From Escherichia coli (GTDB taxonomy: Bacteria; Pseudomonadota; Gammaproteobacteria; Enterobacterales; Enterobacteriaceae): a stretch of DNA of 64,000 nt. Position numbers and translations under genes: made by a program. The notes beneath the pieces are model-generated. The model did not search any database. It saw only the letters and a program-made list of their open reading frames with translations, and was not told where the DNA came from. Where the stretch lies: the NCBI RefSeq assembly GCF_003018115.1, contig NZ_CP027457.1. One strand, given 5' to 3'. Of the stretch, positions 36,720 through 64,000 are shown in pieces. Every line of letters starts with the position of its first letter. Position 1 is the stretch's first letter.

Positions 36720-36723
36720 GTCG

Positions 36724-38860: not shown

Positions 38861-38878
38861 CTGCCGTTATCTCCTGGG

Positions 38879-40252: not shown

Positions 40253-43577
<3,325 letters not shown>

Positions 43578-43791
43578 CGCGCACCTCGTGGCTGATTATG
43601 GACGGCGTTATTGGCAAAGTGGAACAAGACTCACTCCCGGGTCAGCAAACTCGAAAAATTGACGCTCCCATTATTTGTGCTTTCGTTTTTTTCTATCCGC
43701 CAATAAACCCGTTTTTTTGTTGCTATTTAGCGCCTTTGTCTTATTGACTTACTGGTAGGCTTTGCTATCAGAAATTATCCAGGAGATGAAA
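43578..43791. promoter_or_regulatory. Divergent fliE / fliF class II flagellar promoter region
   Basis: Intergenic region between divergently oriented fliF and fliE. Assigned from established flagellar regulon architecture; no binding site was mapped by eye. Confidence 0.4.
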
Positions 43792-44106
43792 ATGTCAGCG
43801 ATACAGGGGATTGAAGGGGTTATCAGCCAGTTACAGGCTACGGCGATGAGTGCGCGTGCGCAGGAATCACTGCCGCAACCGACCATTAGTTTTGCCGGGC
43901 AGCTGCACGCCGCTCTCGATCGCATAAGCGATACACAAACAGCCGCCCGCACGCAGGCAGAAAAATTCACTCTCGGTGAACCCGGCGTGGCGTTAAACGA
44001 TGTGATGACCGATATGCAAAAAGCCTCAGTTTCTATGCAAATGGGGATTCAGGTGCGTAATAAGCTGGTGGCGGCGTATCAGGAAGTGATGAGCATGCAG
44101 GTGTAG
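43792..44106 (+). CDS. fliE: Flagellar hook-basal body protein FliE (104 aa)
   Basis: Sequence [29 protein letters not shown]...; start trimmed from the track ORF. Confidence 0.85.
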
Positions 44107-44439
44107 GTTTTGTAACCTGTTGTTGATTACATCCGATCTCACCGCGTGGGGCATGGATGGGGCAAATTCACTCATTTTCTGGTTTAAAATGGATACCTGA
44201 TCCTGAAAGTTTTCTGCCATCCACGATCTGTATACGCGATAACATGTTTTGTCTTCGCTTTGCTCATAGGAAGAGTGAACTCTTTTGTTAGCCTGGGGTT
44301 CCTTCTGATCATTATTGTTCCTGCCTTTATCTCTTGCCACGCCAGAGCCCCCTGGATACACATACACCAGGATGAAAACGGTGAGTTGTGTTCAAACTGT
44401 AGTACAATTCTCTCCAGTATGAACAGGAAAGAATATGCT

Positions 44440-44772
44440 ATGAACCCTTATATTTATCTTGGTGGCGCAATACTTGCAGAGGTCATTGGTACAACCTTAA
44501 TGAAGTTTTCAGAGGGGTTTACACGGTTATGGCCCTCTGTTGGCACAATTATTTGCTATTGTGCATCATTCTGGTTATTAGCTCAGACACTGGCTTATAT
44601 ACCTACAGGGATTGCTTATGCTATCTGGTCAGGAGTCGGTATCGTTCTGATTAGTTTGCTTTCCTGGGGATTTTTTGGTCAACGACTGGACCTGCCAGCC
44701 ATCATAGGCATGATGTTGATTTGTGCCGGTGTGTTAGTCATTAACTTGTTGTCACGAAGTGCACCGCATTAA
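44440..44772 (+). CDS. emrE: SMR-family multidrug efflux transporter (EmrE-like, 110 aa)
   Basis: Sequence MNPYIYLGGAILAEVIGTTLMKFSEGFTRLW... with the conserved membrane-embedded Glu (AEV); near-identical to my recollection of K-12 EmrE. Track ORF is over-extended upstream. Confidence 0.8.
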   Translation: MNPYIYLGGAILAEVIGTTLMKFSEGFTRLWPSVGTIICYCASFWLLAQTLAYIPTGIAYAIWSGVGIVLISLLSWGFFGQRLDLPAIIGMMLICAGVLVINLLSRSAPH

Positions 44773-44940
44773 AAAATAATCATCCTTGAGATAACAGGAA
44801 TCTGATTTGTGCATATTATGGCTAATGTTCGGGGCAACTTTATAATTATGATTGCATTTGCGCGATCATTGCGCCTTTTTGCATAATGAGATCAAGGCAC
44901 ATCAAATAAAATAACGATAGGTCACAACAAAGAGGTTTTT

Positions 44941-45492
44941 ATGAAAAAACTTATCGTTTCAAGTGTATTGGCATTCATAACATTTTCTGCGCAGGCCGCA
45001 GCATTTCAGGTCACTAGTAATGAAATAAAAACAGGAGAGCAACTTACAACGTCTCATGTATTTTCTGGATTTGGGTGTGAGGGGGGTAATACATCGCCCT
45101 CATTAACCTGGTCTGGTGCTCCAGAAGGCACCAAAAGCTTTGCCGTAACTGTGTATGATCCAGATGCGCCTACAGGCAGTGGATGGTGGCACTGGACTGT
45201 TGCTAATATTCCAGCAACGGTAACATATTTGCCCGCTGATGCAGGAAGACGTGATGGTACAAAACTTCCGACTGGTGCTGTCCAAGGCCGAAATGATTTT
45301 GGCTATGCGGGATTTGGTGGAGCATGTCCTCCCAAAGGAGATAAACCCCATCATTACCAGTTTAAAATATGGGCTCTAAAAACTGATAAGATTCCTGTGG
45401 ATTCTAATTCCAGCGGAGCGTTAGTTGGTTATATGCTTAATGCCAATAAAATTGCAACCGCTGAGATAACACCCGTTTATGAGGTAAAGTAG
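44941..45492 (+). CDS. Periplasmic PEBP/RKIP-family protein (YbcL-like, 183 aa)
   Basis: Signal peptide MKKLIVSSVLAFITFSAQA and PEBP core (DPDAP...HHY); resembles the DLP12-encoded YbcL. Confidence 0.75.
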   Translation: MKKLIVSSVLAFITFSAQAAAFQVTSNEIKTGEQLTTSHVFSGFGCEGGNTSPSLTWSGAPEGTKSFAVTVYDPDAPTGSGWWHWTVANIPATVTYLPADAGRRDGTKLPTGAVQGRNDFGYAGFGGACPPKGDKPHHYQFKIWALKTDKIPVDSNSSGALVGYMLNANKIATAEITPVYEVK

Positions 45493-45501
45493 GATAAGAG
45501 T

Positions 45502-46299
45502 ATGCTGGCAAAAGATAGGACTAACCTAAAGATTGAAGAAATACGGATGCATAAACATCATGAGATTCACAGGGTTAAGCCTCTTATGCCAGCTTTATGT
45601 CGTATCCGTCAGGGAAAAAAAGTTATCAATTGGGAGACGCATAGTCTAACTGTTGATAATAATCAGATAATATTATTTCCCTGTGGATATGAATTTTATA
45701 TTGCGAATTACCCAGAAGCAGGTCTTTATCTTGCAGAAATGCTTTATTATCCCATTGATCTAATTGAAAAGTTCCAAAATCTTTATGCGATAACCGATCA
45801 AATTCGTAACACGACAGGTTTCTGCTTACCTCAGAATCCCGAGTTAATATATTGTTGGGAGCAACTAAAAACATCTATTTCCCGAGGCTTCTCAACGCAA
45901 ATTCAGGAACACTTAGCAATGGGCGTTCTACTTTCATTAGGAGCACATCATGTTAATTGTTTACTTTTATCAGATAGTAAACAATCATTAATAAGTCGTT
46001 GTTATAACCTAATGCTATCCGAACCTGGAACAAAATGGACAGCAAACAAGGTAGCGAGATATCTCTACATTTCTGTTTCCACATTGCATCGCCGTCTGGC
46101 AAGCGAGGGAGTAAGTTTTCAAAGTATATTGGACGACGTGAGGTTAAATAATGCGTTGTCTGCTATACAAACGACAGTAAAACCCATCAGCGAGATTGCC
46201 AGAGAAAGTGGTTACAAGTGTCCTTCTCGTTTTACTGAAAGGTTCCATAATCGTTTTAAGATAACACCAAGAGAGCTAAGAAAAGCGTCCAGAGAGTAA
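45502..46299 (+). CDS. AraC/XylS-family transcriptional regulator (YbcM-like, 265 aa)
   Basis: C-terminal AraC-type HTH (...[30 protein letters not shown]); AGGA RBS 9 nt upstream; starts 10 bp after the PEBP gene stop (operon-like). Confidence 0.7.
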
Positions 46300-46800
46300 A
46301 AGTATTTTATGAAGGAGCAACAGCATCGATTTTTATTTTGGAAAATAAATACGGCATACTCAACCTATTGGAGCCTGAACAATCCGGTGACTTCTGCGCT
46401 AATCGGGGACGTTTATAAGCACATATAATTGATACTATCTTCCTCCATCACAATTTCAGAAATGCACGTGTGATTTTTTTGCATCCGGCGTTTGGACTAT
46501 GTGGAGTTCAAGAGTGGGAAAGTTACAAGAGGTTGAGGGGATAATTAAAGGGATGCTTATGACATTAGATATCCGGTTAGGTACGGATATCGTTGTTATT
46601 AAATCTAATTGATACGTTAATTGTTCACTGAGTATTATTAAAAATGGGGCGTTGAAACGCCCCAGAAAATAAAGGGTAATATATAACAGAAGGTTTATAT
46701 AGTCAGAAGCAAGATAGTGCTTCTAAGGAAAGTGGTTTGAGGGCGCCACTTATATGTTGGGGAGGCAAAGCCTCCCACAACATATCTTTGAGTAATCAGA

Positions 46801-47883
46801 TTAGAACTGGTAAACCAATCCTACAGCAACGATATCATCGGTAGCAACGCCAGATGCTTTCGTGAAATCGCTCTTATCAATCAGGTTGATTTTGTAATCA
46901 ACAAAAGTGGACATATTTTTGTTGAAGTAATAGGTTGCACCTACATCAATATATTCAACCAGGTCCTGATCACCCCACGCACCCAAGTCTTTTCCTTTAG
47001 ATTGCAGGTAAGCAACGGACGGACGCAGACCGAAGTCGAACTGATATTGTGCAACTACTTCAAAGTTTTGTGCTTTGTTGGCAATATGGTTATTACCAAA
47101 AACAGTCATGTTCTGGGTTTCAGAATAGGTGGTAGCCAGATAGATGTTGTTCGCATCATATTTCAGACCAGCTGCCCATACTTCAGCATTTTGACCAGAT
47201 GCATTCAGGCTGTTGTTACCGTAGATAACCTGATCATTAGTGCGGTCAGATTTAGCATAGGTTGCACCTACACCGAATCCTTCATACTCATAAGTAGTGG
47301 AGAAACCGAAACCATCACCGTTAGCTTCAGTTACGTCAGTGCGGTCATTTTTACCCTGATACTGAGCAGCAAAGTTCAGACCATCAACCAGACCAAAGAA
47401 GTCGTTGTTACGATAAGTTGCAACACCTGTGGTGCGACCAGTCATGAACACATCTGTTTGGGTCCAGGTATCGCCACCGAATTCTGGCAGAACGTCGGTC
47501 CATGCACCGATATCGTATGCTACACCGTAGTTACGGCCATAATCGATGGAGCCGTAGTCACCGAATTTCAGGCCAGCGAAGGCAAGACGGGTTTTATCTT
47601 TGGAAGAACCTTGAGATTCAGCACGGTTGCCTTTGAATTCATATTCCCACTGACCGAAACCAGTCAGTTGATCGTTGATTTGAGTTTCGCCTTTGAAGCC
47701 CAGACGAACATAAGTTGTGTCGCCATCATCTGCATCGTTAGAAGAGAAGTAGTGCTTAGCATTAACTTTTCCGTACAGATCCAGCTTGTTACTGTCTTTA
47801 TTGTAAATCTCTGCTGCCTGAGCAGACATCGCCATCAGTACTGATGCAGCTACAGCAGAAATTGCCACTGTTAATTTTTTCAT
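46801..47883 (-). CDS. General bacterial porin, OmpC/OmpF family, NmpC/Lc-like (360 aa)
   Basis: Signal peptide [23 protein letters not shown], motif [17 protein letters not shown]-terminal ...[10 protein letters not shown]-terminus matches my recollection of NmpC-type porins. Confidence 0.8.
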
Positions 47884-48394
47884 CGTGAGCCCTTTTATTT
47901 GAACTATTATTTAAAAATGATGTCACTGCACCACAAATATTCATCTAATCAATGAGATTATTTCAAGATGTAAGTTTTAGTTTCTCATTTAAATTGTGAA
48001 GTAGATCCCTATTTTTATCTGAACTGTTTCTATTGCACACAATGCATGACTATTTTGTGAACGAATATAAATTTGGTAGTCAAATTATATTAAAGGTTGT
48101 TATTTATGATTGACTCATAATTTATTTTTTTAATTTAAATAGCCTGAAAATAACTATAGAAATTATTTGTATGATATTTGTTTAGATTTATTAATGTAAT
48201 TTAGGTGGTTTTATTTAATACGCAATATAGCGCCGCTTGATATTAGTTCTATTTTTTTGCGTAAGATAGATGAGACAAAACTGAGACGCATAATGGTTTG
48301 CAAGGCTCTAATACTTTGATGTTGAGGATGTGATGGGGCATGTACGGGCATAGTACAATGATGTCCATGCAGGTGTAGATAATCTCCAGGCTTA

Positions 48395-49063
48395 TCAAAC
48401 AGGTTGAATTAACGCTGCGCCCTGGTTTTTAACATTACCCACCGCGCGCGATACCGGGTGCCAGGAGAACTGGTTTGCTGGAACACAGCCACTGGCCGCG
48501 ATTTCTGAGGCTTCTTTACCGCTAATCTCTTGCCGCATCCATTCCCGCGCAGCTTCTGGCGACAGTACCAGTGGGCGGCGGTCATGAATATCTACCAGAC
48601 CTTGATCTGCCGCAGCAGTGACGATCAAAAATCCTTCGGCTTCGTCACCACGCTCAAATGGTGTGCTACCTATCGCGGCCATAAAAATAGGTTGTCCATC
48701 AGCACGATAGATAAAAAAAGGCTGTTTTTTGTCGCCTTCTTTTTTCCACTCAAACCAGCCATCGGCAAAACAGATTGCCCGACCATGTTGCCAGAGCGGT
48801 TTAAACATGCGACTGGTTGCGGCAGTTTCTACGCGGGCGTTAATCAGCGGCGGTTTATCCCACCATCCCGGAGCATATCCCCAGAAAACCGGATCCAGAT
48901 GAAGGTGTTCATCACGTTCACTGAGCAGAAGAACTTTGGTTCCCGGCGCGACGTTGTATCTGCTAATGGGTTCGGGATCGTAGGGAATATCGCGTTCAAT
49001 ATCTTCCGCGAGAAGCGCAAGGTAATCTTCACGCGTTTGGGATTGGGCAAAGCGTCCACACAT
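48395..49063 (-). CDS. yedK: SOS-response-associated peptidase (abasic-site processing protein), 222 aa
   Basis: N-terminal MCGRF (catalytic Cys2) hallmark of the SRAP family. Confidence 0.85.
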   Translation of the reverse strand: MCGRFAQSQTREDYLALLAEDIERDIPYDPEPISRYNVAPGTKVLLLSERDEHLHLDPVFWGYAPGWWDKPPLINARVETAATSRMFKPLWQHGRAICFADGWFEWKKEGDKKQPFFIYRADGQPIFMAAIGSTPFERGDEAEGFLIVTAAADQGLVDIHDRRPLVLSPEAAREWMRQEISGKEASEIAASGCVPANQFSWHPVSRAVGNVKNQGAALIQPV

Positions 49064-49169
49064 AGAAACCTCCTGAGATCATACTGAAAAGAATAGGAGA
49101 GGGGGCGGGTAAAATCTATGTGTCAGAGGCAACGATGTTCCCGCTGTGGGCCACAGCGGGAATGAGGGA

Positions 49170-49403
49170 TTACTTCTGAATTAAATAACGAATGGTCGGC
49201 CCGTCTTGCTGAATATCCAGCACCGTATAGCCGTGATTACGCGCATCCAGTGGAATATTATTGATCGACTGCGGACAGTCGCTCACCACTTCCAGGATCT
49301 CACCTTTTTTTAATTGCGGCATCGCCTCAAGAGTTGCGACTGCCGGATAAGGGCAGGGTTCACCCACCATATCAAGGCGGTAATCAGGAACGATATTTTT
49401 CAT
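49170..49403 (-). CDS. yedF: TusA-like sulfurtransferase-fold protein (77 aa)
   Basis: CPxP motif (EPCPYP) typical of TusA-like proteins; overlaps the yedE stop. Confidence 0.85.
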   Translation of the reverse strand: MKNIVPDYRLDMVGEPCPYPAVATLEAMPQLKKGEILEVVSDCPQSINNIPLDARNHGYTVLDIQQDGPTIRYLIQK

Positions 49404-50605
49404 GCGATCTCCTTAGCAGTCTGCGGTGCCGCACGGCGGAAGAAGCGTTTTTCCCAGCCGATAATCAACATCAGCGCAGTAAACAACAGCAAATATGTCA
49501 CCAGCAGGCCACCCATCGGGCCAAAGGTTTTCAGCAGGTTTATTTTGTCCCAGTCGGTGGCCAGCGCTGGAGCGAAATCATCCCAGTAATACGCCAGAAT
49601 CGTTGAGCCGATCACATTGCCCAGACCGACCCACCAGTAGTGCACCTGGCCTTCTACCGCGCGGTACATCCAGCCGGTTTCGCAGCCGCCAGCCAGCACG
49701 ATGCCAAAACCAAACAGTAAACCACCAATTACCGCGTTTGGTCCCGCCCACATGATTTTGGGTTCAACGCCTAACTGTACGTAACTGAAGATCCCGATGG
49801 CACTCACCGCCATACCGATAATGATTGCTTTCGCCATATGAGTACGTCCGGTGATCCACATATCGCGGAACGCCGAAGTAAAGCAGATTTGCGCACGTTC
49901 AATCAGTAAACCAAAGCCGACGCCAAACAGCATTGCCAGCCCCAGTTTGGGTTGGTTCATCGCCGTGAGCAGCGCCCAGCCCAGCATGCCGAAAAAGACC
50001 AGCATCCCGAGACGAAAACGACGTCGCGCCTGATCCGGTTTTTGCGTCAGCGGTGAGGCGGCAGAAACTTTCTGCATTTTCACGGGAATACGGAAGATGG
50101 GCAGCAGGGTAAAGCGCGCGCCAAACCATGAACCAATGGCAGTGGCGATGGCAAAGAACCAGGCATGCAGCGAGAACTGAGGAATACCGGTAAAGAACGC
50201 CGCCAGGTTACAGCCCATTGCCAGACGCGCGCCAAAACCGGCGATAATGCCGCCAATGATGGCCTGCATAATGCGGATACGGCTGCGCGGCATTCGCAGT
50301 TTGACATTGTTGGCCCACAGCGCTGCGGCAAAGCAGCCGCCAAACATACCGAGGATCATCATCCCGTCGATGCGGGTTAATGGCGATCCTTCCAGATGGA
50401 TAATTTTAAAGTAACCCCACTCTTCAGCATGGACGCCGAACAGTTGCAGGAGCTGGCCGCCCCAACGGGTAAATTCACCCGTGACAGCCCAAAAGGTGCC
50501 AGTAATGCCAAAATAGTAAGTGGAGAGAATACCCGCCGCGATGACCGCGGGGATGGGCGCCCAGAATTTAATCAACCAGGCGTGTTTGAATTGCTGCCAT
50601 GACAT
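49400..50605 (-). CDS. yedE: YedE/YeeE-family inner-membrane transporter (401 aa)
   Basis: Polytopic membrane protein with duplicated YeeE/YedE domain; paired with yedF. Confidence 0.85.
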   Translation of the reverse strand: MSWQQFKHAWLIKFWAPIPAVIAAGILSTYYFGITGTFWAVTGEFTRWGGQLLQLFGVHAEEWGYFKIIHLEGSPLTRIDGMMILGMFGGCFAAALWANNVKLRMPRSRIRIMQAIIGGIIAGFGARLAMGCNLAAFFTGIPQFSLHAWFFAIATAIGSWFGARFTLLPIFRIPVKMQKVSAASPLTQKPDQARRRFRLGMLVFFGMLGWALLTAMNQPKLGLAMLFGVGFGLLIERAQICFTSAFRDMWITGRTHMAKAIIIGMAVSAIGIFSYVQLGVEPKIMWAGPNAVIGGLLFGFGIVLAGGCETGWMYRAVEGQVHYWWVGLGNVIGSTILAYYWDDFAPALATDWDKINLLKTFGPMGGLLVTYLLLFTALMLIIGWEKRFFRRAAPQTAKEIA

Positions 50606-50791
50606 GAATGTAGCCTCTGAACTCAGAAGGTTTGAAACAAGAGTCGCGAATCATACACCATGCAAATTTATTTTCGGGGTAATAATTCACAAAAATAATA
50701 GTTAGATCAAATTTCTCTCTGAACCTGGAAAGGCTGGCGACATCAGGGCTTTAATGCCACAATCCTCTTTTCTTCTCATGCAGGACGAATG

Positions 50792-51205
50792 ATGAAAAAA
50801 CTCGCAATTGCAGGCGCGCTCATGTTGCTGGCGGGCTGTGCCGAAGTCGAAAACTATAACAATGTCGTGAAAACCCCCGCGCCGGACTGGCTGGCGGGCT
50901 ACTGGCAGACCAAAGGGCCGCAACGTGCGCTGGTCAGCCCGGAAGCGATAGGCAGCCTGATTGTCACTAAAGAGGGCGATACCCTGGATTGCCGTCAGTG
51001 GCAGCGGGTGATTGCTGTGCCGGGCAAGTTGACATTGATGTCTGATGATCTCACTAACGTTACCGTAAAACGTGAGCTGTACGAGGTTGAGCGTGACGGT
51101 AACACCATTGAGTACGATGGTATGACGATGGAGCGTGTGGATCGCCCGACAGCAGAGTGTGCCGCCGCGCTGGATAAAGCGCCGTTACCGACGCCACTGC
51201 CGTAA
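50792..51205 (+). CDS. yedD: Lipoprotein YedD (~137 aa)
   Basis: Lipobox LLAGC near the N-terminus; start could be 50789 or 50792. Confidence 0.75.
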   Translation: MKKLAIAGALMLLAGCAEVENYNNVVKTPAPDWLAGYWQTKGPQRALVSPEAIGSLIVTKEGDTLDCRQWQRVIAVPGKLTLMSDDLTNVTVKRELYEVERDGNTIEYDGMTMERVDRPTAECAAALDKAPLPTPLP

Positions 51206-51238
51206 TGAAATCTCCCCGGCTTGCTGCCGGGGATGAAT

Positions 51239-52726
51239 TTAAATCACCTCTTCGATAACCCACACGCTAACGCTGCCGCCGTTGCAAAAGAAGGTCGCTT
51301 CGCCGTTTTCGTCGGTTACTACACTCTCTTGCCGGTTCCCAAGAAAATCACGCCAGGTTTTATTGCCGTAATTCTCTCCCAGATGAATGGTTTTTTCGCC
51401 ATCATCCCCGTTCGACATGACCACCACGCAGCCGGGATATTCGTCAGTGCCACTGCGGCTAAAGGCAATGCAGTTCGGATGGTCGAAAAATAACGTCTGT
51501 ACACCGTGGGCGAAACGCTGACGGGCGAGAATTAACTCATCAAGCTGTTCGATTATTGGCATATCTATCGGATAGGTTTGCCCGTCACCACCGACATCTT
51601 CGTAATGCGCACCGTAGAGGTCCGGATAGAATACCGAAGGAACGCCATTTTCCCGCAACAAAATTAAGGCGTACGCCAGCGGTTTAAACCACGGTTCGAC
51701 CGGCGCTTCGAGGGCTTGCAACGGTTGGGTGTCATGGTTGGCAACGAGGGTTACGGCGTGAAAAGGATCGGCTTCCACCAGCGTCCCAGTGAAAATCTGC
51801 GTCATGTCGTAGTCGCGTCCCATGCGCGATGCTTCATGGAATTTCATCTGCAGCGGTGCATCGAACAGCATGGTTTTGCCTTCCACCTGATCAATATACG
51901 TTTGCAGTTTATCAACTTCATGCGACCAGTACTCCGCCACAATAAACAGCGGCTTTGGCGCAACTTCCTGTACGTGTTCGATCCACTCTTTATAAAACCA
52001 GGCTGGAATATGTTTGACCGCATCAAGACGAAAACCGTCGCATTGCGTTTGTTCCATCACCCAGCGCGCCCAGTATTTAATCTCTTCCGTCACGGCATGA
52101 TTGCGAAAATCGATATTCTCGCCCATCAGATAATCGAAATTACCTAATTCATCATCAACCTGATCGTTCCAGCCTTCGCCGGTGTAGTCGTTAACAATTT
52201 TAAATATGCCATCTTCATCAGGGTTTTCGATATGGTCGATACCGCTAAAACATTTGAAATCCCAGATAAACTGTGAGTATTGCCCGGCACGGGCGGGGAA
52301 GGTGTAACGCGTCCAGCCTTCGCACTCAATGATTTCTTCATCAATTTGCGTACGGTCGTCAGCATTTACACGCTGCACGCGAATAGCTTCTTTTTCATCC
52401 GCGCCCATTTTGTGGTTGACTACCACGTCCAACAGCACCGCAATGTCATTACGTTTCAGGGCGTCAATGGCGGCCAGCAGTTGTACTTTATCGCCATATT
52501 TAGTAGGGATGCTGCCTTTCTGATCAAACTCACCTAAATCAAATAAATCATAGGAGTCGTAGCCGACCGAATACCCGCCCGATGCGCCTTTATAGGCGGG
52601 CGGCAACCAGACCATATTGATACCAATATCATTAAAACCGTCGGCGCGCTCGGCCAGTTCAGGCCAGAGCTTACCGCCTTCCGGGTAATACCAGTGAAAA
52701 CATTGTAACAGCGTGGGATTACGCAT
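51239..52726 (-). CDS. amyA: Cytoplasmic alpha-amylase (495 aa)
   Basis: GH13 motifs ([15 protein letters not shown]) and no signal peptide. Confidence 0.9.
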
Positions 52727-52803
52727 TCTTCGACTCCATTCAAGGGGAACATTAGAAGCGTAGCCGTAATCGGATTATTCGCGAGCCATCGACTCATTCA
52801 GAT

Positions 52804-53169
52804 TCAAAAGAGGTTATCCTGCGGAGCCAGCACAAAGCCGCCCTGATCGCCATAGGCACTTAACACCGATTTTTGCACCGATGACTGACCGACCAGTTTC
52901 GCCAGTTCATCCATCCGAATCTGTAATAACTGCTTTACCTTGCTTTCGTTGTCGAGAATCAGGCGCAGCATCGGGCGGAGCTGCTCCTGCATCGTGGTGG
53001 ACGGCTCAACCTCTTCAGTCAGGTGTGCAATTTCCTGCACCGCATTCACATACGCCATTTCGCTGGCGATGAGTTCGTCCCACTGTTCTTCTGTTGCCAG
53101 GCGTAACATGAGCTGGCTTTTTTCGACGAGTTGTTGCCAGGCGAAATACAAATGCGGTGCATTGTTCAT
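52804..53169 (-). CDS. fliT: Flagellar chaperone for FliD / anti-FlhDC factor (121 aa)
   Basis: Last gene of fliDST; sequence [22 protein letters not shown]... Confidence 0.85.
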
Positions 53170-53579
53170 CAGACTGGGTCCTGAATCAAAGAAGGGGAGA
53201 GTAAAGACTCTTTCCAGGCATCGGCAATATTACGCATTAATGCTTCCACCTCTTCGACTGCGGAGACATCGTTGCGTAAATTGGCTTGCAGCAAGCGCCT
53301 GACCATATAGCTATAAAGAGCAATCAAGTTTTGGGTTAATTCGTCTTTGCTATCTTCATCAAGACTCACCCGCAGTCCGTTCTCAATGATGTTGATCGCT
53401 TTTGACAAAGAGACGCCTTTGCCTTGCTGATTGTTGTCCTGCATAAACAGGCGCGCTCTAACCAGTGCACTCAGCACTCCATCAAATAGCATGGTGACCA
53501 GCTGCTGCTGGCTGGCGCTCATTACGGCGCTTTCGACGCCAATTTGTGCATAGGCCTGGGTGCCTTTTGCCGCGTACAT
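53169..53579 (-). CDS. fliS: Flagellin-specific chaperone FliS (136 aa)
   Basis: Full-length match to FliS; overlaps the fliT start. Confidence 0.9.
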
Positions 53580-53603
53580 GACCTGTCTCCCGATGAATAT
53601 TGA

Positions 53604-55010
53604 TTACTTGGAATTACTGTTGTTTTCGAACTGCTGCGTTAAGTAGCTGCTTGTGCTGTTTAACGAGGTCATTAAAACGTCCAGTTGGGTAAATTGTTCT
53701 TTGTAGCGCGCGACCTGCGCATCAATGCGATCGCTGGCGGCGTTGTAGTCTTTAGTTAATTTATTCAGGGTCTTACTAACGCCATCGGTAGCGGCTTTAA
53801 TAATGCCCGTTGTCGAAAGCCAACTGGTCAGGTTGCTGCCGATGGTGGTTGTGATGCCGGTTTTTTTACCATCGCCAACAATCAATGCACCTACGCCGCT
53901 GGCATCTTTTTTCAGTGCAGCGGTGAGTTTGTCGGCATCCAGTTCCAGTTTGCCATCGCTGGGATCGGTCGTGATACCAATCTGCGCCAACGTTTTATAG
54001 TTGGAAGAACTAACGGTATTACTCAGCATCGACTTCAACTGCGTCTGAATCGTCCGCAGCGTGGAGTCGCCGAGCAGTGCGCCATTGCTAGAGCTCTGGC
54101 TATCAGCTCCCGCATCTACGGCGGTGTATTTGGTCAGGCTGCTGAAGGTATCTATTAGCGAGTTATAGGCATTCACCCAGTCTTTAATCGCCGTTTGCGC
54201 TTTGGAGGTGTCCTGAGTGATGGTCAGCGTCTGGTTGCCCGTGGTGACATCGTTCAGGTTCAGGGTGATGTTTTCCAGCGCGTCGCTGATAGTGTTGCTG
54301 CTGTTCTCGATGGCGACGTTGTTGACTGTCAGCTGCGCATTCTGGGCGGCGACCGAGACCTCCATGCCGTTGCTGCTGGCACTGGCGTCATAGCCCATAA
54401 AACTTTGTAGCGCATCATCACCGCTGACCGAGAGTGTCATCGCATTATCAAGGCCGGTGTCATTTGATGTGACTGACAGACGATATTCACCGTTACCCAC
54501 GTTAATGATGCTCGCACTTACGCCCGCTTTTGCGTTGTTGATGGCATCACGGATCCCGCTTAACGACGAGTTAGCCGCGCTGATATCAATGGTAATCGGA
54601 TCTTTGTCGCCGCCTTGTTGAATGGTGAGTTTACTGTCGCTGGTGGCGATCGCCGTTTTCGTATCATCTCTGGTGGTGCGCGTGGTCAGGGTTTGCGCCT
54701 GCGCCAGATGGGTGACGCTGATGGTGTATTTCCCGGCGATGGCGTTACCCGCGGTGGTGGCACTGAACGCGGTGGTGCTGCTGGTAGTGCTGGTGGCGGA
54801 AAAAAGATCGGCTTTAGACAATGCAGTATTGGCGGTCTGGAAAGTCGTCAACGCGCTTTTCAGCGTACCGTAGGCGCTAAGTTTAGCGGTAAACGACGAT
54901 TGCTGATTTGAAATAGGGGTTAGCGTCGCTTTTTGCGCGGCGGTGAGGCTATCAAGGATTGAACTTAAATCCAGGCCTGACCCGACTCCCAGCGATGAAA
55001 TACTTGCCAT
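53604..55010 (-). CDS. fliD: Flagellar filament cap protein FliD (468 aa)
   Basis: N-terminus MASISSLGVGSGLDLSSILDSLTAAQK... Confidence 0.9.
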   Translation of the reverse strand: MASISSLGVGSGLDLSSILDSLTAAQKATLTPISNQQSSFTAKLSAYGTLKSALTTFQTANTALSKADLFSATSTTSSTTAFSATTAGNAIAGKYTISVTHLAQAQTLTTRTTRDDTKTAIATSDSKLTIQQGGDKDPITIDISAANSSLSGIRDAINNAKAGVSASIINVGNGEYRLSVTSNDTGLDNAMTLSVSGDDALQSFMGYDASASSNGMEVSVAAQNAQLTVNNVAIENSSNTISDALENITLNLNDVTTGNQTLTITQDTSKAQTAIKDWVNAYNSLIDTFSSLTKYTAVDAGADSQSSSNGALLGDSTLRTIQTQLKSMLSNTVSSSNYKTLAQIGITTDPSDGKLELDADKLTAALKKDASGVGALIVGDGKKTGITTTIGSNLTSWLSTTGIIKAATDGVSKTLNKLTKDYNAASDRIDAQVARYKEQFTQLDVLMTSLNSTSSYLTQQFENNSNSK

Positions 55011-55053
55011 GCGATTTCCTTTTATCTTTCGACACGTAAAACGAATACCGGGG

Positions 55054-55080
55054 TTATCGGCCTGAATTGCGCAAAGTTTA
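55054..55080 (-). promoter_or_regulatory. Sigma-28 (FliA) class III promoter of fliDST
   Basis: Minus-strand sequence TAAACTTTGCGCAATTCAGGCCGATAA matches the sigma-28 consensus TAAAGTTT-N11-GCCGATAA, about 45 bp upstream of the fliD start. Confidence 0.6.
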
Positions 55081-55172
55081 CGTTTAATTGTTTTTTTTAA
55101 TAGCGGGAATAAGGGGCAGAGAAAAGAGTATTTCGGCGACTAACAAAAAATGGTTGTTTGTGAAAAAAATTC

Positions 55173-55199
55173 TAAAGGTTGTTTTACGACAGACGATAA
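55173..55199 (+). promoter_or_regulatory. Sigma-28 (FliA) class III promoter of fliC
   Basis: TAAAGGTTGTTTTACGACAGACGATAA, a near match to the sigma-28 consensus, about 75 bp upstream of the fliC ATG. Confidence 0.55.
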
Positions 55200-55275
55200 C
55201 AGGGTTGACGGCGATTGAGCCGACGGGTGGAAACCCAATACGTAATCAACGACTTGCAATATAGGATAACGAATC

Positions 55276-56955
55276 ATGGCACAAGTCATTAATACCAACA
55301 GCCTCTCGCTGATCACTCAAAATAATATCAACAAGAACCAGTCTGCGCTGTCGAGTTCTATCGAGCGTCTGTCTTCTGGCTTGCGTATCAACAGCGCGAA
55401 GGATGACGCCGCGGGTCAGGCGATTGCTAACCGTTTTACTTCTAACATTAAAGGCCTGACTCAGGCTGCACGTAACGCCAACGACGGTATTTCTGTTGCG
55501 CAGACCACCGAAGGCGCGCTGTCCGAAATCAACAACAACTTACAGCGTATCCGTGAACTGACGGTTCAGGCTTCTACCGGGACTAACTCTGATTCGGATC
55601 TGGACTCCATTCAGGACGAAATCAAATCCCGTCTGGACGAAATTGACCGCGTATCCGGTCAAACCCAGTTCAACGGTGTGAACGTACTGGCGAAAGACGG
55701 TTCGATGAAAATTCAGGTTGGTGCGAATGACGGCCAGACTATCACTATTGATCTGAAGAAAATTGACTCTGATACTCTGGGTTTGAGTGGATTTAATGTG
55801 AATGGCAAAGGGGCTGTGGCTAACGCAAAAGCGACCGAAGCAGATTTAACGGGGGCTGGTTTCTCTCAAGGAGCGGTGGATACAAACGGAAATAGTACTT
55901 GGACAAAATCAACCACCACCAATTACTCAGCTGCAACAACTGCTGACTTGTTATCGACCATTAAGGATGGCTCTACTGTTACATATGCAGGGACAGACAC
56001 CGGATTGGGGGTCGCAGCAGCAGGAAATTATACTTATGATGCGAACAGTAAATCTTATTCCTTCAATGCCAATGGTCTGACGGGCGCAAATACCGCAACT
56101 GCACTCAAAGGTTACTTGGGGACAGGTGCTAACACCGCTAAAATTTCTATCGGTGGTACAGAGCAGGAAGTGAATATTGCCAAAGATGGCACTATTACAG
56201 ATACGAATGGTGATGCGCTCTATCTGGATATTACCGGCAACCTGACTAAGAACTATGCGGGTTCACCACCTGCAGCAACGCTGGATAACGTATTAGCTTC
56301 CGCAACTGTAAATGCCACTATCAAGTTTGATAGCGGTATGACGGTTGATTATACTGCAGGTACTGGCGCGAATATTACAGGTGCATCCATTTCTGCAGAT
56401 GACATGGCCGCAAAACTGAGCGGAAAGGCGTACACTGTTGCCAATGGTGCTGAGTCTTATGACGTTGCTGCAGTTACGGGGGCTGTAACAACTACAGCAG
56501 GTAATTCACCTGTGTATGCCGATGCAGACGGTAAATTAACGACGAGTGCCAGTAATACGGTTACTCAGACTTATCACGAGTTTGCTAATGGTAACATTTA
56601 TGATGACAAAGGCTCGTCACTGTATAAAGCTGCAGATGGCTCTCTGACTTCTGAAGCTAAAGGGAAATCTGAAGCAACCGCCGATCCCCTGAAAGCTCTG
56701 GACGAAGCGATCAGCTCCATCGACAAATTCCGCTCCTCCCTCGGTGCGGTGCAGAACCGTCTGGATTCCGCAGTCACCAACCTGAACAACACCACTACCA
56801 ACCTGTCCGAAGCGCAGTCCCGTATTCAGGACGCCGACTATGCGACCGAAGTGTCCAATATGTCGAAAGCGCAGATCATTCAGCAGGCCGGTAACTCCGT
56901 GCTGGCAAAAGCTAACCAGGTACCGCAGCAGGTTCTGTCTCTGCTGCAGGGTTAA
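55276..56955 (+). CDS. fliC: Flagellin (H antigen), 559 aa, with a long central variable domain
   Basis: Conserved N-terminus ([54 protein letters not shown]) and C-terminus (...[12 protein letters not shown]); the Thr/Gly/Ala-rich middle is allele-specific. Confidence 0.9.
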
Positions 56956-56994
56956 TCGTCGTAAACTGATTAACTGAGACTGACGGCAACGCCA

Positions 56995-57100
<106 letters not shown>

Positions 57101-57128
57101 ATAAAGCGCAATTTGTCAGCAACGTGCT

Positions 57129-57153
57129 TCCCCGCCACCGGCGGGGTTTTTTC
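57129..57153 (+). terminator. Rho-independent terminator downstream of fliC
   Basis: CCCCGCCACCGGCGGGG hairpin followed by TTTTTT. Confidence 0.6.
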
Positions 57154-57274
57154 TGCCTGGAATTTACCTGTAACCCCCAAATAACCCCTCATTTCACCCA
57201 CTAATCGTCCGATTAAAAACCCTGCAGAAACGGATAATCATGCCGATAACTCATATAACGCAGGGCTGTTTATC

Positions 57275-57994
57275 GTGAATTCACTCTATACCGCTGAAGG
57301 TGTAATGGATAAACACTCGCTGTGGCAGCGTTATGTCCCGCTGGTGCGTCACGAAGCATTGCGCCTGCAGGTTCGACTGCCCGCGAGCGTGGAACTTGAC
57401 GATCTGCTACAGGCGGGCGGCATTGGGTTACTTAATGCCGTCGAACGCTATGACGCCCTACAAGGAACGGCATTTACAACTTACGCAGTGCAGCGTATCC
57501 GTGGCGCTATGCTGGATGAACTTCGCAGCCGTGACTGGGTGCCGCGCAGCGTGCGTCGCAACGCGCGTGAAGTGGCACAGGCAATAGGGCAACTGGAGCA
57601 GGAACTTGGCCGCAACGCCACGGAAACTGAGGTAGCGGAACGTTTAGGGATAGATATTGCCGATTATCGCCAAATGTTGCTCGACACCAATAACAGCCAG
57701 CTCTTCTCCTACGATGAGTGGCGCGAAGAGCACGGCGATAGCATCGAACTGGTTACTGATGATCATCAGCGAGAAAACCCGCTACAACAACTGCTGGACA
57801 GTAATTTGCGCCAGCGGGTGATGGAAGCCATCGAAACGTTGCCGGAGCGCGAAAAACTGGTATTAACCCTCTATTACCAGGAAGAGCTGAATCTCAAAGA
57901 GATTGGTGCAGTGCTGGAGGTCGGGGAATCGCGGGTCAGTCAGTTACACAGCCAGGCTATTAAACGGTTACGCACTAAACTGGGTAAGTTATAA
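57275..57994 (+). CDS. fliA: Flagellar sigma factor sigma-28 (239 aa)
   Basis: GTG start; sigma-70-family regions 2 to 4; N-terminus MNSLYTAEGVMDKHSLWQRYVPLV... Confidence 0.9.
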   Translation: MNSLYTAEGVMDKHSLWQRYVPLVRHEALRLQVRLPASVELDDLLQAGGIGLLNAVERYDALQGTAFTTYAVQRIRGAMLDELRSRDWVPRSVRRNAREVAQAIGQLEQELGRNATETEVAERLGIDIADYRQMLLDTNNSQLFSYDEWREEHGDSIELVTDDHQRENPLQQLLDSNLRQRVMEAIETLPEREKLVLTLYYQEELNLKEIGAVLEVGESRVSQLHSQAIKRLRTKLGKL

Positions 57995-58039
57995 CGTCAG
58001 TAAATGCCGCACTTTAACTTTGACTACCAGGAGTTCTTA

Positions 58040-58591
58040 ATGATGGTGCAGCACCTGAAAAGACGGCCATTAAGCCGCTATCTTAAAGACTTTAAACACA
58101 GCCAGACCCATTGCGCGCATTGCCGTAAATTACTCGATCGCATTACCTTAGTTCGCGACGGCAAAATAGTGAATAAAATCGAGATTTCCCGCCTGGACAC
58201 GCTGCTTGATGAAAATGGCTGGCAAACGGAACAAAAATCATGGGCGGCATTGTGCCGATTTTGCGGTGATTTACACTGCAAAACGCAGAGTGATTTTTTC
58301 GATATTATCGGCTTTAAGCAATTTCTTTTTGAGCAAACTGAAATGAGCCCTGGTACGGTGCGTGAATATGTCGTTCGTTTGCGCCGTTTGGGGAATCATC
58401 TACACGAGCAAAATATTTCCCTCGATCAGCTGCAGGACGGTTTCCTTGATGAAATCCTCGCCCCGTGGCTGCCTACCACCAGCACCAACAATTACCGCAT
58501 TGCGTTACGGAAGTATCAACACTATCAGCGTCAAACGTGTACCGGACTTGTGCAGAAATCCTCCAGCCAGCCTGCTTCTGATATATATTAA
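58040..58591 (+). CDS. fliZ: FliZ regulator (183 aa)
   Basis: N-terminus MMVQHLKRRPLSRYLKDFKHSQTHCAHC... after trimming the track extension; immediately downstream of fliA. Confidence 0.85.
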   Translation: MMVQHLKRRPLSRYLKDFKHSQTHCAHCRKLLDRITLVRDGKIVNKIEISRLDTLLDENGWQTEQKSWAALCRFCGDLHCKTQSDFFDIIGFKQFLFEQTEMSPGTVREYVVRLRRLGNHLHEQNISLDQLQDGFLDEILAPWLPTTSTNNYRIALRKYQHYQRQTCTGLVQKSSSQPASDIY

Positions 58592-58678
58592 ATAAGAATA
58601 AGATGTAGCGGAGTTGTTTTTGTGTTTACAAACAATGGCTCTACACTGCAAACAGACATAACAACATTCGGGGTGAAT

Positions 58679-60570
<1,892 letters not shown>

Positions 60571-60584
60571 CTCCGGAAACGCTC

Positions 60585-61253
60585 ATGCAAGAAAGTATAC
60601 AACTGGTTATTGATTCCTTGCCGTTCCTGCTGAAAGGGGCTGGGTATACGCTGCAACTCAGTATCGGCGGCATGTTTTTTGGCTTATTACTCGGGTTTAT
60701 TCTCGCGCTGATGCGCCTGTCGCCAATCTGGCCCGTGCGCTGGCTGGCGCGTTTTTATATCTCTATTTTTCGTGGTACGCCGCTCATCGCACAACTGTTT
60801 ATGATCTATTACGGCCTGCCGCAGTTTGGCATCGAATTAGATCCCATTCCGTCAGCAATGATTGGTCTGTCGCTGAACACTGCCGCCTATGCTGCCGAAA
60901 CGCTGCGCGCCGCCATTTCTTCTATTGATAAAGGTCAGTGGGAAGCAGCTGCCAGTATTGGTATGACGCCATGGCAGACCATGCGTCGCGCGATTTTGCC
61001 ACAGGCGGCGCGGGTGGCGTTGCCGCCGCTGTCGAACAGCTTTATCAGCCTGGTAAAAGATACGTCGCTGGCCGCGACAATCCAGGTGCCGGAGCTGTTC
61101 CGTCAAGCGCAGTTGATTACCTCGCGCACGCTGGAGGTGTTCACCATGTACCTGGCGGCTTCGCTCATCTACTGGATCATGGCGACAGTATTATCGACGT
61201 TGCAGAACCATTTTGAGAATCAACTTAATCGCCAGGAGAGAGAACCAAAATGA
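60585..61253 (+). CDS. tcyL: L-cystine ABC transporter permease (222 aa)
   Basis: Polar amino acid ABC permease with EAA loop; matches YecS/TcyL. Confidence 0.85.
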   Translation: MQESIQLVIDSLPFLLKGAGYTLQLSIGGMFFGLLLGFILALMRLSPIWPVRWLARFYISIFRGTPLIAQLFMIYYGLPQFGIELDPIPSAMIGLSLNTAAYAAETLRAAISSIDKGQWEAAASIGMTPWQTMRRAILPQAARVALPPLSNSFISLVKDTSLAATIQVPELFRQAQLITSRTLEVFTMYLAASLIYWIMATVLSTLQNHFENQLNRQEREPK

Positions 61254-62002
61254 GTGCCATTGAAGTTAAGAACCTGGTGAAAAAATTTCACGGTCAGACG
61301 GTGCTGCACGGTATCGACCTTGAGGTAAAGCCTGGCGAAGTGGTGGCAATTATCGGTCCGAGTGGTTCCGGCAAAACCACGTTGCTACGTAGCATAAATC
61401 TGCTGGAACAACCGGAAGCGGGAACGATCACCGTTGGCGATATCACTATTGATACTGCACGTTCATTAAGTCAGCAAAAATCGCTGATTCGCCAGTTGCG
61501 TCAGCACGTCGGGTTTGTCTTCCAGAACTTTAATTTGTTTCCGCATCGTACGGTGCTGGAGAACATTATTGAAGGGCCGGTGATCGTCAAAGGCGAACCG
61601 AAAGAAGAGGCCACGGCGCGCGCTCGCGAGCTACTGGCAAAAGTTGGGCTGGCCGGTAAAGAAACCAGCTATCCACGTCGTTTGTCTGGCGGTCAACAGC
61701 AGCGTGTTGCGATTGCGCGTGCGCTGGCAATGCGTCCTGAGGTGATTTTGTTTGACGAGCCAACGTCAGCACTGGATCCAGAGCTGGTGGGCGAAGTCCT
61801 GAACACCATCCGTCAGCTGGCGCAGGAAAAGCGCACGATGGTGATTGTGACACACGAAATGAGCTTTGCCCGGGATGTTGCGGACCGGGCGATCTTTATG
61901 GACCAGGGGCGGATAGTCGAGCAGGGGGCCGCAAAAGCGTTATTTGCCGATCCCAAGCAGCCTCGCACCCGCCAGTTCCTCGAGAAGTTTCTGCTGCAAT
62001 AA
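61250..62002 (+). CDS. tcyN: L-cystine ABC transporter ATP-binding protein (250 aa)
   Basis: Walker A GPSGSGKTT, ABC signature LSGGQQQR, Walker B ILFDEPTSALD. Confidence 0.85.
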   Translation: MSAIEVKNLVKKFHGQTVLHGIDLEVKPGEVVAIIGPSGSGKTTLLRSINLLEQPEAGTITVGDITIDTARSLSQQKSLIRQLRQHVGFVFQNFNLFPHRTVLENIIEGPVIVKGEPKEEATARARELLAKVGLAGKETSYPRRLSGGQQQRVAIARALAMRPEVILFDEPTSALDPELVGEVLNTIRQLAQEKRTMVIVTHEMSFARDVADRAIFMDQGRIVEQGAAKALFADPKQPRTRQFLEKFLLQ

Positions 62003-62231
62003 TAAGAAAAAATCAGCCCCGACGATTCACCTGTCGGGGCGGGACGCCATTTCAAGCGTGATAAAACTGCTTAACAAATCAGCATAACTCATTAATAACA
62101 TAAGAGAATGCGATGGCTTGCAAAAGTAATTCATTGCCTGAATAATATAAATTATATATAAATCTTATTTATGTGATAGTTTGAATTATCATTATAAATG
62201 GTACTCACTCTCAGGGGCGTTGCGGTTTACT

Positions 62232-62954
62232 ATGCAGGATACGGATTTTTTCAGCTGGCGTCGCACGATGCTGTTGCGTTTTCAGAGGATGGAGACCGCA
62301 GAAGAGGTCTACCATGAAATTGAGCTTCAGGCTCAGCAGCTGGAGTACGATTACTATTCGTTATGTGTCCGCCACCCGGTACCATTCACTCGACCTAAAG
62401 TGGCTTTCTACACCAATTACCCTGAGGCGTGGGTTAGTTATTATCAGGCAAAAAACTTTCTCGCAATTGATCCGGTACTGAACCCTGAAAACTTTAGTCA
62501 GGGCCATCTAATGTGGAATGATGACTTATTCAACGAAGCACAGCCGTTATGGGAAGCCGCGCGCGCACATGGTTTACGCCGCGGTGTCACTCAGTATTTA
62601 ATGCTGCCAAACCGGGCGCTGGGCTTTTTGTCCTTTTCCCGTTGCAGCGCGCGCGAAATACCCATTCTTAGTGATGAACTGCAATTAAAAATGCAGTTAC
62701 TGGTGCGCGAAAGTCTGATGGCTCTGATGCGTTTAAATGATGAAATAGTGATGACGCCAGAGATGAATTTCAGCAAGCGCGAAAAAGAAATTCTGAGGTG
62801 GACGGCGGAAGGGAAGACATCAGCAGAGATAGCGATGATTTTGTCAATCTCTGAGAATACGGTCAATTTCCACCAGAAAAACATGCAGAAAAAAATTAAT
62901 GCACCAAATAAGACCCAGGTTGCCTGTTACGCGGCCGCTACTGGCTTAATTTGA
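62232..62954 (+). CDS. sdiA: LuxR-family quorum-sensing regulator SdiA (240 aa)
   Basis: N-terminus MQDTDFFSWRRTMLLRFQ..., autoinducer-binding domain and C-terminal LuxR HTH. Confidence 0.85.
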   Translation: MQDTDFFSWRRTMLLRFQRMETAEEVYHEIELQAQQLEYDYYSLCVRHPVPFTRPKVAFYTNYPEAWVSYYQAKNFLAIDPVLNPENFSQGHLMWNDDLFNEAQPLWEAARAHGLRRGVTQYLMLPNRALGFLSFSRCSAREIPILSDELQLKMQLLVRESLMALMRLNDEIVMTPEMNFSKREKEILRWTAEGKTSAEIAMILSISENTVNFHQKNMQKKINAPNKTQVACYAAATGLI

Positions 62955-62983
62955 TCTCTTTTCTGTCCTGCGTGCCAGATGCA

Positions 62984-63019
62984 AAAACCGGCTGAAAGGC
63001 ACGCTATCAGCCGGTTTTA
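62984..63019. terminator. Bidirectional hairpin terminator between sdiA and yecF
   Basis: AAAAACCGGCTGA...TCAGCCGGTTTT with A-run and T-run on the two sides, between convergent stops. Confidence 0.55.
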
Positions 63020-63021
63020 TA

Positions 63022-63246
63022 TTACTGACGGTAGGCTTGTTTAATTTGCTTAACCGTTTTGGAAAATACTGCAGCCTGGGTTTCGTCTTCGATCAGCGCA
63101 AGCTGTTTTTCCATCTTTAACATCACGCGGCCCGCGTCAGCTTGTCCCATCGCCTGCAGCATCAGCGTCAGCATCGCTTTCAGGCAGGAGACTTCATTTG
63201 CCAGTTCTTGATTATTCTCGGCAGTAGAAAAATCAGGCGTACTCAT
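63022..63246 (-). CDS. yecF: Small protein YecF (74 aa)
   Basis: Sequence [34 protein letters not shown]...; conserved position next to sdiA. Confidence 0.75.
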
Positions 63247-63704
63247 TTATTTTCCTCGTCATGTTGCAATGAAAATTTGCGGTGAAAAATGTTAAGGCGG
63301 CGGAGTATACCATAAGCTTTGTTAAAAATAGCAGTGGTTGTTTTTTGAGCGTGTCGTCAACGGTGCTATTAAATGCGTTAATATAATGACCAATAAATAT
63401 TTTTATCATGAATGTTTTTTGCCCGTATTGTTCGGGTTAATTAATGTTACATATTCAGCGGGCTGATTTTCATTTTTGCTGAATAAAGGTAATTTTTGTC
63501 ACATTTCGTCGCAGGGCTTACTGTGAAACGATCCGGTAAGCCGTTGGTGACGGGCGTGACCATAACTGTGGACAATCGAATTGACAAAAACGAGAGAAAA
63601 ATCGAATACCCACCATTTTTAACGTTTCAAAGTTGCAATAAAAACCGCTAATATACGAATGACTAACTATCAGTAGCGTTATCCCTATTTCTGGAGATAT
63701 TCCT

Positions 63705-64000
63705 TTGATCAACGTTCTACTTGTTGATGACCACGAACTGGTGCGCGCAGGGATACGACGCATTCTGGAAGATATAAAGGGTATAAAAGTCGTCGGTGAG
63801 GCATCGTGCGGTGAAGACGCCGTTAAGTGGTGCCGGGCAAATGCCGTTGACGTGGTGCTAATGGACATGAGTATGCCGGGCATTGGCGGTCTTGAGGCGA
63901 CGCGTAAAATCGCGCGTTCCACAGCTGATGTCAAAATCATCATGCTTACCGTCCATACAGAAAACCCTTTACCAGCGAAAGTCATGCAGGCCGGTGCTGC
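63705..64000 (+). CDS. uvrY: Response regulator UvrY (BarA partner), N-terminal receiver domain only; 3-prime end beyond the window
   Basis: TTG start with GGAG RBS; translation INVLLVDDHELVRAGIRRILEDIKGIKVVGEASCGEDAVKWCR... matches UvrY. Missing from the ORF track because it runs off the window end. Confidence 0.8.
   Translation, partial: MINVLLVDDHELVRAGIRRILEDIKGIKVVGEASCGEDAVKWCRANAVDVVLMDMSMPGIGGLEATRKIARSTADVKIIMLTVHTENPLPAKVMQAGA

Follow-up and report, generated by a model that had tools for sequence, protein, structure and literature searches.

The fliC locus and its expression signals

The window analysed here, a stretch of 64,000 nucleotides from an Escherichia coli chromosome, carries an intact fliC gene on the plus strand, whose ORF of 1680 nt runs without an internal stop and codes for a flagellin of 559 residues with the C-terminus QVLSLLQG. 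According to the ORF map, amyA-fliT-fliS-fliD lie to the left on the minus strand, and fliC-fliA-fliZ-tcyJ-dcyD to the right on the plus strand. This order, with fliDST pointing away from fliC and fliAZ following it, matches the annotated O169:H41, C4, and K-12 records. The features around the gene are the following.

53002 to 55027, minus strand: fliT (3' part), fliS, and fliD, forming a tract of about 2 kb of different ancestry that abuts the fliC promoter region
55173 to 55199, plus strand: predicted FliA (sigma-28) class-3 promoter of fliC, with TAAA (55173-55176), 15 nt, and GACGATAA (55192-55199)
55276 to 56955, plus strand: fliC, H41 allele, an uninterrupted ORF of 559 codons plus stop with Pfam and NCBIfam flagellin matches
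56961 to 57152, plus strand: fliC 3' UTR, equivalent to the region of the K-12 FliX sRNA, with REP-like repeats and, after them, an intrinsic terminator

The protein holds the conserved flagellin helical ends around a variable middle, as seen with both Pfam and NCBIfam. Flagellin_N covers residues 5-140 (E 1.4e-46) and Flagellin_C residues 472-557 (E 4.7e-32); between them, residues 338-462 match PF12445, the enterobacterial 'FliC' middle domain (E 1.9e-30). NCBIfam NF005953, 'FliC/FljB family flagellin', matches from end to end with 744.9 bits (cut-off of 619 bits). A previous sequence-only reading of this DNA had described a fliC allele with canonical ends, a description borne out by the ORF, the Pfam domains, and the amino acid identities of the two arms.

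Sigma-28 promoters follow the consensus TAAA-N15-GCCGATAA. On the basis of this established consensus, we take the string at 55173-55199 to be a sigma-28 promoter; the whole 27-nt string, TAAAGGTTGTTTTACGACAGACGATAA, is found identical upstream of K-12 fliC. Sigma-70 promoter-like sites inside fliC are no commoner than in shuffled sequence. Downstream of the gene, K-12 fliX (b4827) aligns to 56961-57152 at 97.9%, and a terminator scan finds a strong hairpin with its stem at 57130-57146 plus a T run. FliX has no Rfam match at the fliC 3' UTR and was placed by this alignment to K-12; the only Rfam matches around fliC are sub-threshold ones of REP type in the 3' UTR (naRNA4, at 56957-57107, and ES036). 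A query covering 56686-57274, spacer included, has a median of 27 matching places per genome.

There is no sign that fliC is silent, and the gene is presumably expressed. FliA (sigma-28) would transcribe it from the class-3 promoter, and the flagellin would be exported via the flagellar type III system and polymerise under the FliD cap to build the filament. It is very unlikely that this intact gene is not the expressed flagellin, either in a non-motile strain or in one relying on another locus, such as flkA, fllA, flmA, or flnA. Some E. coli do use flagellins from other loci (PMC7018530), and the window is only 64 kb of the genome. Nevertheless, strains with other-locus flagellins have been reported with an inactivated fliC (PMC7018530), whereas fliC, its sigma-28 promoter, fliA, fliZ, fliD, fliS, and fliT are all intact in the window, and H41 is a fliC-encoded type.

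The variable core and the H41 type

Comparison with other alleles divides the gene into two conserved arms and a variable core, in which a short motif is also considered below.

55276 to 55815, plus strand: conserved 5' arm (N-terminal D0/D1 helices), whose residues 1-178 are 92-97% identical in amino acids to those of five other H types
55816 to 56685, plus strand: variable, serotype-specific core of 870 nt (outer domains D2-D3-D4)
56236 to 56253, plus strand: GNLTKN, codons 321-326, counterpart of the EHEC H7 D4 dimer-site motif in the HMMER alignment to 7sn4
56686 to 56955, plus strand: conserved 3' arm (C-terminal D1/D0 helices), whose residues 471-559 are 96-98% identical in amino acids to those of other H types

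A 60-nt profile compares the gene with five other fliC alleles. Nucleotide identity stays at 90-100% up to approximately gene nt 420, drops to 58-77% at nt 481-540, ranges across the centre from 45-85% for four long alleles to 5-47% for K-12, and returns to at least 85% from nt 1441. The drop places the central block at about codons 170-480, so that the boundaries proposed in the sequence-only reading, codons 180-470 or so, are good to about ten codons. That reading had also called the centre rich in Thr, Gly, Ala, and Asn, rightly so, since Ala (17.5%), Thr (15.8%), Gly (11.6%), and Asn (7.5%) are all abundant in residues 179-470, where Ser (8.6%) and Asp (7.5%) are enriched too. The nearest other alleles reach only 64-66% nucleotide and 59-64% amino acid identity in the core, and K-12 reaches 27% amino acid identity. 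For the 5' arm, 100% nucleotide identity is confined to five O169:H41-like genomes, the next best value being 98.9%.

The impression that the product is longer than the K-12 flagellin was likewise correct, as its 559 residues compare with 498 for K-12 MG1655 (fliC of 1497 nt), a difference of 61. Internal repeat expansion as the source of this extra length was ruled out, as Tandem Repeats Finder detected no tandem repeats at a score of at least 30 in 55000-57300. The extra residues come instead from a different, larger outer-domain architecture. In the filament, the helices of the two conserved ends (D0/D1) form the core and bear the region recognised by TLR5, and the central block of approximately 300 residues is exposed at the surface. 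This block determines the H41 antigen and accounts for the 61 residues that K-12 H48 lacks.

The assignment to H41 comes from searches of 5,426 complete E. coli genomes. With the whole gene as the megablast query, the conserved arms are found in 4,519 of them, and full-length coverage in only 11. Megablast with the 870-nt core recovers these 11 genomes (0.2%), each at no less than 99% identity, and no further one, and a more sensitive blastn search of this collection with the core returned nothing between 99% and approximately 66% identity, so that the type is sharply bounded. Two groups can be distinguished among the carriers. The O169:H41-like group comprises F6326-C1, 2014EL-1345-2, F9792, F8111-1SC3, and LR882990, with 99.9% identity in both gene and core, and the C4-like group comprises C4, three ST2747 records, HYM1, and T-HYM1, with 98.5% identity in the gene and 99.3% in the core.

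Among the first group, F6326-C1 and 2014EL-1345-2 are O169:H41 by name in their own genome records, and F8111-1SC3 is described as an ETEC O169:H41 strain (PMC8085198). The two former belong to ST182, phylogroup E, and a study that typed all of its genomes found 93% of 130 ST182 genomes to be O169:H41 by SerotypeFinder (PMC8454413). Among ETEC outbreak serotypes, O169:H41 is a classical one, defined by serology (PMC3322800), and the gene of the H41 type strain, RVC1787, is AY250020.1 (PMC4753304). The fliC of the window lies at the same locus as that of the five O169:H41-like genomes, has the same length, and is identical to it in 1679 of 1680 nt. The one mismatch, the same against all five, is at 56352 (T vs C, TAT vs TAC), a synonymous change in the third position of Tyr359, and the protein is consequently 100% identical. 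In the ST182 ETEC strains F6326-C1 and 2014EL-1345-2 this protein is WP_001613314.1; the exact 559-residue sequence is UniProt Q842B3 and is present on 466 public contigs. The FliC of the C4 group (WP_000079709.1) differs from it solely by I319T, and this T319 variant is found on 358 contigs, which brings both H41 variants together to more than 800 public contigs.

These identities, read through the labelled O169:H41 genomes and the literature, make the ORF, with high confidence, the chromosomal fliC in its H41 form; this confidence extends to the reading as a whole, in which recombination is the origin of the allele in its hosts and a sheath is the likeliest filament form, as discussed in the following sections. 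A name can thereby be given to the H type that the sequence-only reading could not assign, as the gene is 99.9% identical in DNA and 100% identical in protein to those of genomes named O169:H41. By the same comparison, it appears as an already catalogued fliC-H41 with one silent base change rather than a new allele. The earlier reading had added that the allele would lose interest if its H type proved to be common and well described; H41 counts among the classical H antigens and is indeed well described, although, with 11 of 5,426 genomes, it is uncommon.

H37 and H41 are serologically so close that cross-absorbed antisera are required to tell them apart (PMC4753304), which raises the question of whether the allele could be H37 or another type cross-reacting with H41. 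This is highly improbable, and confusion with H37 was rejected on sequence grounds. Strains that were serotyped and labelled as O169:H41 have exactly this protein, the H37 flagellin falls in cluster C143, apart from C14 and C84, the two main clusters of E. coli flagellins (PMC7018530), and the empty interval between 99% and about 66% core identity leaves no confusable near neighbour among the 5,426 complete genomes.

With the allele named as H41, the flagellar part of the serotype is given for the strain, and this stretch of chromosome is tied to the ETEC O169:H41/ST182 lineage, which is useful in typing and epidemiology.

Recombination at fliC and the surrounding chromosome

Alignment to the chromosome of O169:H41 shows the window to be mosaic: blocks that have 0-2 differences per kb are interspersed with others that have 10-50. 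Positions 1-44242 are 98.9% identical to that chromosome, and an island of approximately 4.1 kb at 44243-48379, next to fliE, stands where O169:H41 has about 1.4 kb. The fliC gene itself is within a near-identical block, with 4 differences over 55028-64000. On its left, the tract at 53002-55027, whose right edge is in the fliD-fliC intergenic region, contains 35 of the 44 positions at which the window and the O169:H41 chromosome differ over 49276-62955, and is about equally distant (1.7-2.0%) from O169:H41, C4, and K-12; FliD has no amino acid change with respect to O169:H41. In no complete E. coli genome does this tract find a match above 98.9%, nor do the blocks 1-12000 and 34000-49300 find one above 98.8%.

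Judged by these comparisons, the strain of the window is a relative of the ST182 lineage at the fliC locus and not that clone, from which it differs in the fliT-fliD tract and in the island by fliE, and its own lineage is absent from the complete genomes. Since the surrounding chromosome is clearly not that of the ST182 clone, H41 alone should not be read as 'ETEC O169:H41'.

The position of fliC in a mosaic region with many recombination tracts might also suggest a new or hybrid H type, generated by recombination inside the variable region. The chance of this is minimal. The gene differs from existing H41 genes by one synonymous change over 1680 nt, its protein is in UniProt and on hundreds of contigs, and the 60-nt identity profile shows no segment switching to another allele; a new or hybrid allele was accordingly rejected on this near-identity.

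A more informative pattern emerges when the two H41 backgrounds, that of the window and O169:H41 on the one hand and that of C4 on the other, are contrasted. Divergence between them is 2.6% in the amyA flank, 2.0% in fliA-tcyN, 3.8% in the fliC-fliA spacer, 3.7% in the fliC 3' arm, and 1.7% in the 5' arm, but only 0.6-0.7% in the fliC core. Within the gene there are 25 differences from C4, all synonymous but one. The arms, 810 nt in total, hold 19 of them, against 6 in the 870-nt core (Fisher p = 0.0075). The antigenic core would thus be three- to five-fold younger than the backbones carrying it. This pattern fits a transfer of H41 by homologous recombination whose end-points lie within or close to the conserved arms, a route by which the allele probably reached its present hosts, whatever the direction and timing of that transfer may have been. 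From 25 differences between two lineages, the exchange can be bounded only roughly, at gene nt ~500-730 on the left and ~1360-1435 on the right.

The same pattern and interpretation have been published for H7 by Hu and Reeves (PMC7018530), and the locus constitutes a clean, small example of that effect, with a core far less diverged than the lineage backbones. The sequence-only reading had pointed to this region as a hotspot of horizontal exchange and had suggested looking for breakpoints at the junctions between conserved and variable segments. The contrast between arms and core upholds the first point locally and, for the second, points to ends in or near the arms, at the rough positions just given. 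The significance of the locus goes little beyond annotation, and the recombination signature is real but a textbook pattern.

Outer-domain fold and comparison with known flagellins

The closest solved structures by sequence are those of EPEC O127:H6 (7SQJ/7SN7; E 1e-184, residues 1 to 559), followed by EHEC O157:H7 (7SN4; E 1e-151), and then by K-12 H48 (8CXM) and Achromobacter (7SQD). A full-length AlphaFold model has pLDDT below 50 in many D0/D1 stretches and global TM scores of only 0.34-0.41; because of this weakness, the outer region was re-modelled alone (residues 172-472), with a mean pLDDT of 85.8 and a pTM of 0.69. A Foldseek search of the PDB with this model gives five significant chains, all from four sheath-forming flagellins: Azotobacter 9n59, H7 7sn4 (two chains), H6 7sn7, and Achromobacter 7sqd, with E-values from 4e-18 to 2e-8. 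TMq is 0.50-0.56 for four of these chains and 0.35 for Achromobacter 7sqd, and the identity in the outer-domain alignments is 34% to H6 and 22-24% to H7. Apart from these five chains, nothing in the PDB falls below E 0.03, and there is no match to the Salmonella D2/D3 domains. The variable region is therefore modelled with three outer domains, D2-D3-D4, folded as in H6 and H7, both of which form sheaths.

The outer domains of H6 and H7 have a fold unrelated to Salmonella D2/D3, and pair through 'up' and 'down' conformers, rotated by 180 degrees, to form an outer-domain sheath (PMC8931119, Kreutzberger et al. 2022). In H7, this sheath stabilises an intermediate waveform and prolongs tumbles, and the D4 dimer on which it depends requires N319 and N323, whose mutation disrupts the sheath and lowers soft-agar motility (PMC8931119). 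In the HMMER alignment to 7sn4, N322 and N326 of H41 align with these two residues (G321-N322-L-T-K-N326 vs G318-N319-L-T-T-N323), and the GNLTKN motif is invariant in the five aligned alleles, namely H41, H6, and three other long alleles. At the position of Asp316, a residue of the H7 dimer interface, there is Ile319 in the H41 protein of the window, Thr in the other common H41 variant, and Ala in H6; residue 319 is thus polymorphic within H41, two residues ahead of the motif.

By its modelled fold and its motif, H41 is assigned to the sheath-forming class, of which only few structures are available. The likeliest form of the H41 filament is probably one whose outer domains pair into an outer-domain sheath, by analogy with H6 and H7; as in H7, such a sheath would stabilise an intermediate waveform and prolong tumbles. 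A less probable form, although one to be taken seriously, is an ordinary filament with unpaired outer domains, as in K-12 H48 or Salmonella FliC, in which the extra length would be antigenic only. The PDB searches returned no structure of an H41 filament, nor was a micrograph of one found, H41 and H6 share just 39% identity in the outer region, and Asp316 of the H7 dimer site is replaced in both H41 variants, all of which count in favour of unpaired domains. However, the outer-domain fold matches sheath-forming flagellins only, the GNLTxN motif with the two Asn needed for the H7 sheath and motility is kept, and H6, with Ala at the Asp316 position, still makes D4 dimers (PMC8931119).

There is a small probability, on a speculative reading, that the H41 sheath has its own lattice, whether dimeric as in H7, tetrameric with a seam as in H6, or of a third kind, and that the I319/T319 polymorphism tunes it, since this position aligns with Asp316 in the D4 dimer interface of H7. 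Were this the case, the two H41 variants, while sharing a serotype, would differ in waveform stability or tumbling.

Set beside the known systems, the fliC of the window is closest to that of the O169:H41 genomes, with which it shares the protein, and next to the second H41 sub-allele (C4, ST2747, and HYM1), which has the same core at 99.3% nucleotide identity and concentrates most of its differences in the conserved arms, on a background that is ~2-2.6% divergent. The other long alleles with cores that can be aligned, which include those labelled H32 and H10 in their records (570 aa), the ETEC1720 type (561 aa), and the NCTC9038 type (557 aa), exhibit the same domain layout and the GNLTKN motif. 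They are distinct antigenic types, however, with a core nucleotide identity of 64-66%, far below the 99% or more found within H41.

Among the flagellins of known structure, EPEC H6 (7SN7, 7SQJ) is identical to H41 over FliC residues 1-169, but diverges in the outer region. With both H6 (548 aa) and H7 (585 aa), H41 (559 aa) has full-length homology, three outer domains of the same predicted fold, and a conserved GNLTxN D4 dimer motif, whereas it differs from H7 (7SN4) in holding Ile319 in place of Asp316. K-12 FliC (H48; 8CXM), the non-sheath comparator of the structural work (PMC8931119), occupies the same locus, with the same promoter string and 3' UTR and with arms at 92% and 97% amino acid identity. 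Its central region, on the contrary, is only 27% identical to that of H41, with 77 gap positions, and leaves the K-12 protein 61 residues shorter.

Mosaicism against the O169:H41 chromosome

Compared with the chromosome of the ETEC serotype O169:H41 (strain F6326-C1 type), the window (1-64000) is a mosaic, comprising near-identical blocks (for example, at 13-18 kb, 23-34 kb, 50-53 kb, and 55-64 kb) together with blocks that hold 10-50 differences per kb (for example, at 6-9 kb, 19-23 kb, and 35-42 kb). None of the complete genomes in the collection matches the divergent blocks at more than 98.8%, so the lineage of the window is absent from that collection. Divergence from O169:H41 peaks, with up to 52 differences per kb, at the following gene:

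Window ~6000-9000, large Ig-like-domain/inverse-autotransporter (YeeJ-like) gene, site of peak divergence

This gene holds internal self-similar repeats, as 7453-8843 aligns to shifted positions at 85-89% in secondary BLAST alignments. At 12166-12291, a segment of approximately 110 nt has three further matches (93-99%) in the O169:H41 region. Since four tRNA-Asn genes are annotated in that region, around mtfA, yeeO, and cbl-nac, these matches probably represent multiple tRNA-Asn copies.

fliC and the adjoining fliT-fliS-fliD tract

The protein encoded by fliC (H41 flagellin) is identical to that of O169:H41, and two sites were noted in and beside this gene:

53002-55027, minus strand, divergent tract of ~2 kb directly left of the fliC promoter, comprising the 3' part of fliT, fliS, and fliD
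56232-56234, fliC codon 319, Ile/Thr variable within H41

Over 49276-62955, the window shows 44 differences relative to the O169:H41 chromosome, and 35 of these lie in the tract. Its distance of 1.7-2.0% is roughly the same to O169:H41, to C4 (a strain with a second H41 sub-allele), and to K-12, and no match above 98.9% was found among 5,426 complete genomes. At the protein level, the tract carries three amino-acid changes in FliT, one in FliS, and none in FliD.

Codon 319 is the sole common protein polymorphism within H41, with Ile319 (O169:H41-type) present on 466 contigs versus 358 for Thr319 (C4-type). The residue lies two positions ahead of the conserved GNLTKN motif, and is aligned to Asp316 of the sheath-forming H7 flagellin, which is located at the D4 dimer interface.

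The fliE-yedK island and the fliC 3' UTR

Two further features were compared with known strains:

44243-48379, island of ~4.1 kb between fliE and yedK
56957-57152, fliC 3' UTR, with REP-like palindromic units followed by a GC-rich terminator

The island carries genes for a transporter of the SMR family, a protein of the PEBP family, an AraC-type regulator, and a general porin of 360 aa. It is probably common, given that 80% or more of 34000-49300 is covered in one stretch by ~2,476 complete genomes. In O169:H41 strain F6326-C1, the site is occupied by just ~1.4 kb, where a DUF5503 gene with a frameshift lies together with a fragment of an integrase.

Regarding the 3' UTR, its Rfam matches to naRNA4 and ES036 are both sub-threshold, and a query taking in the fliC 3' spacer found a median of 27 matching places per genome. 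The FliX sRNA annotated in K-12 aligns with this UTR at 97.9%.
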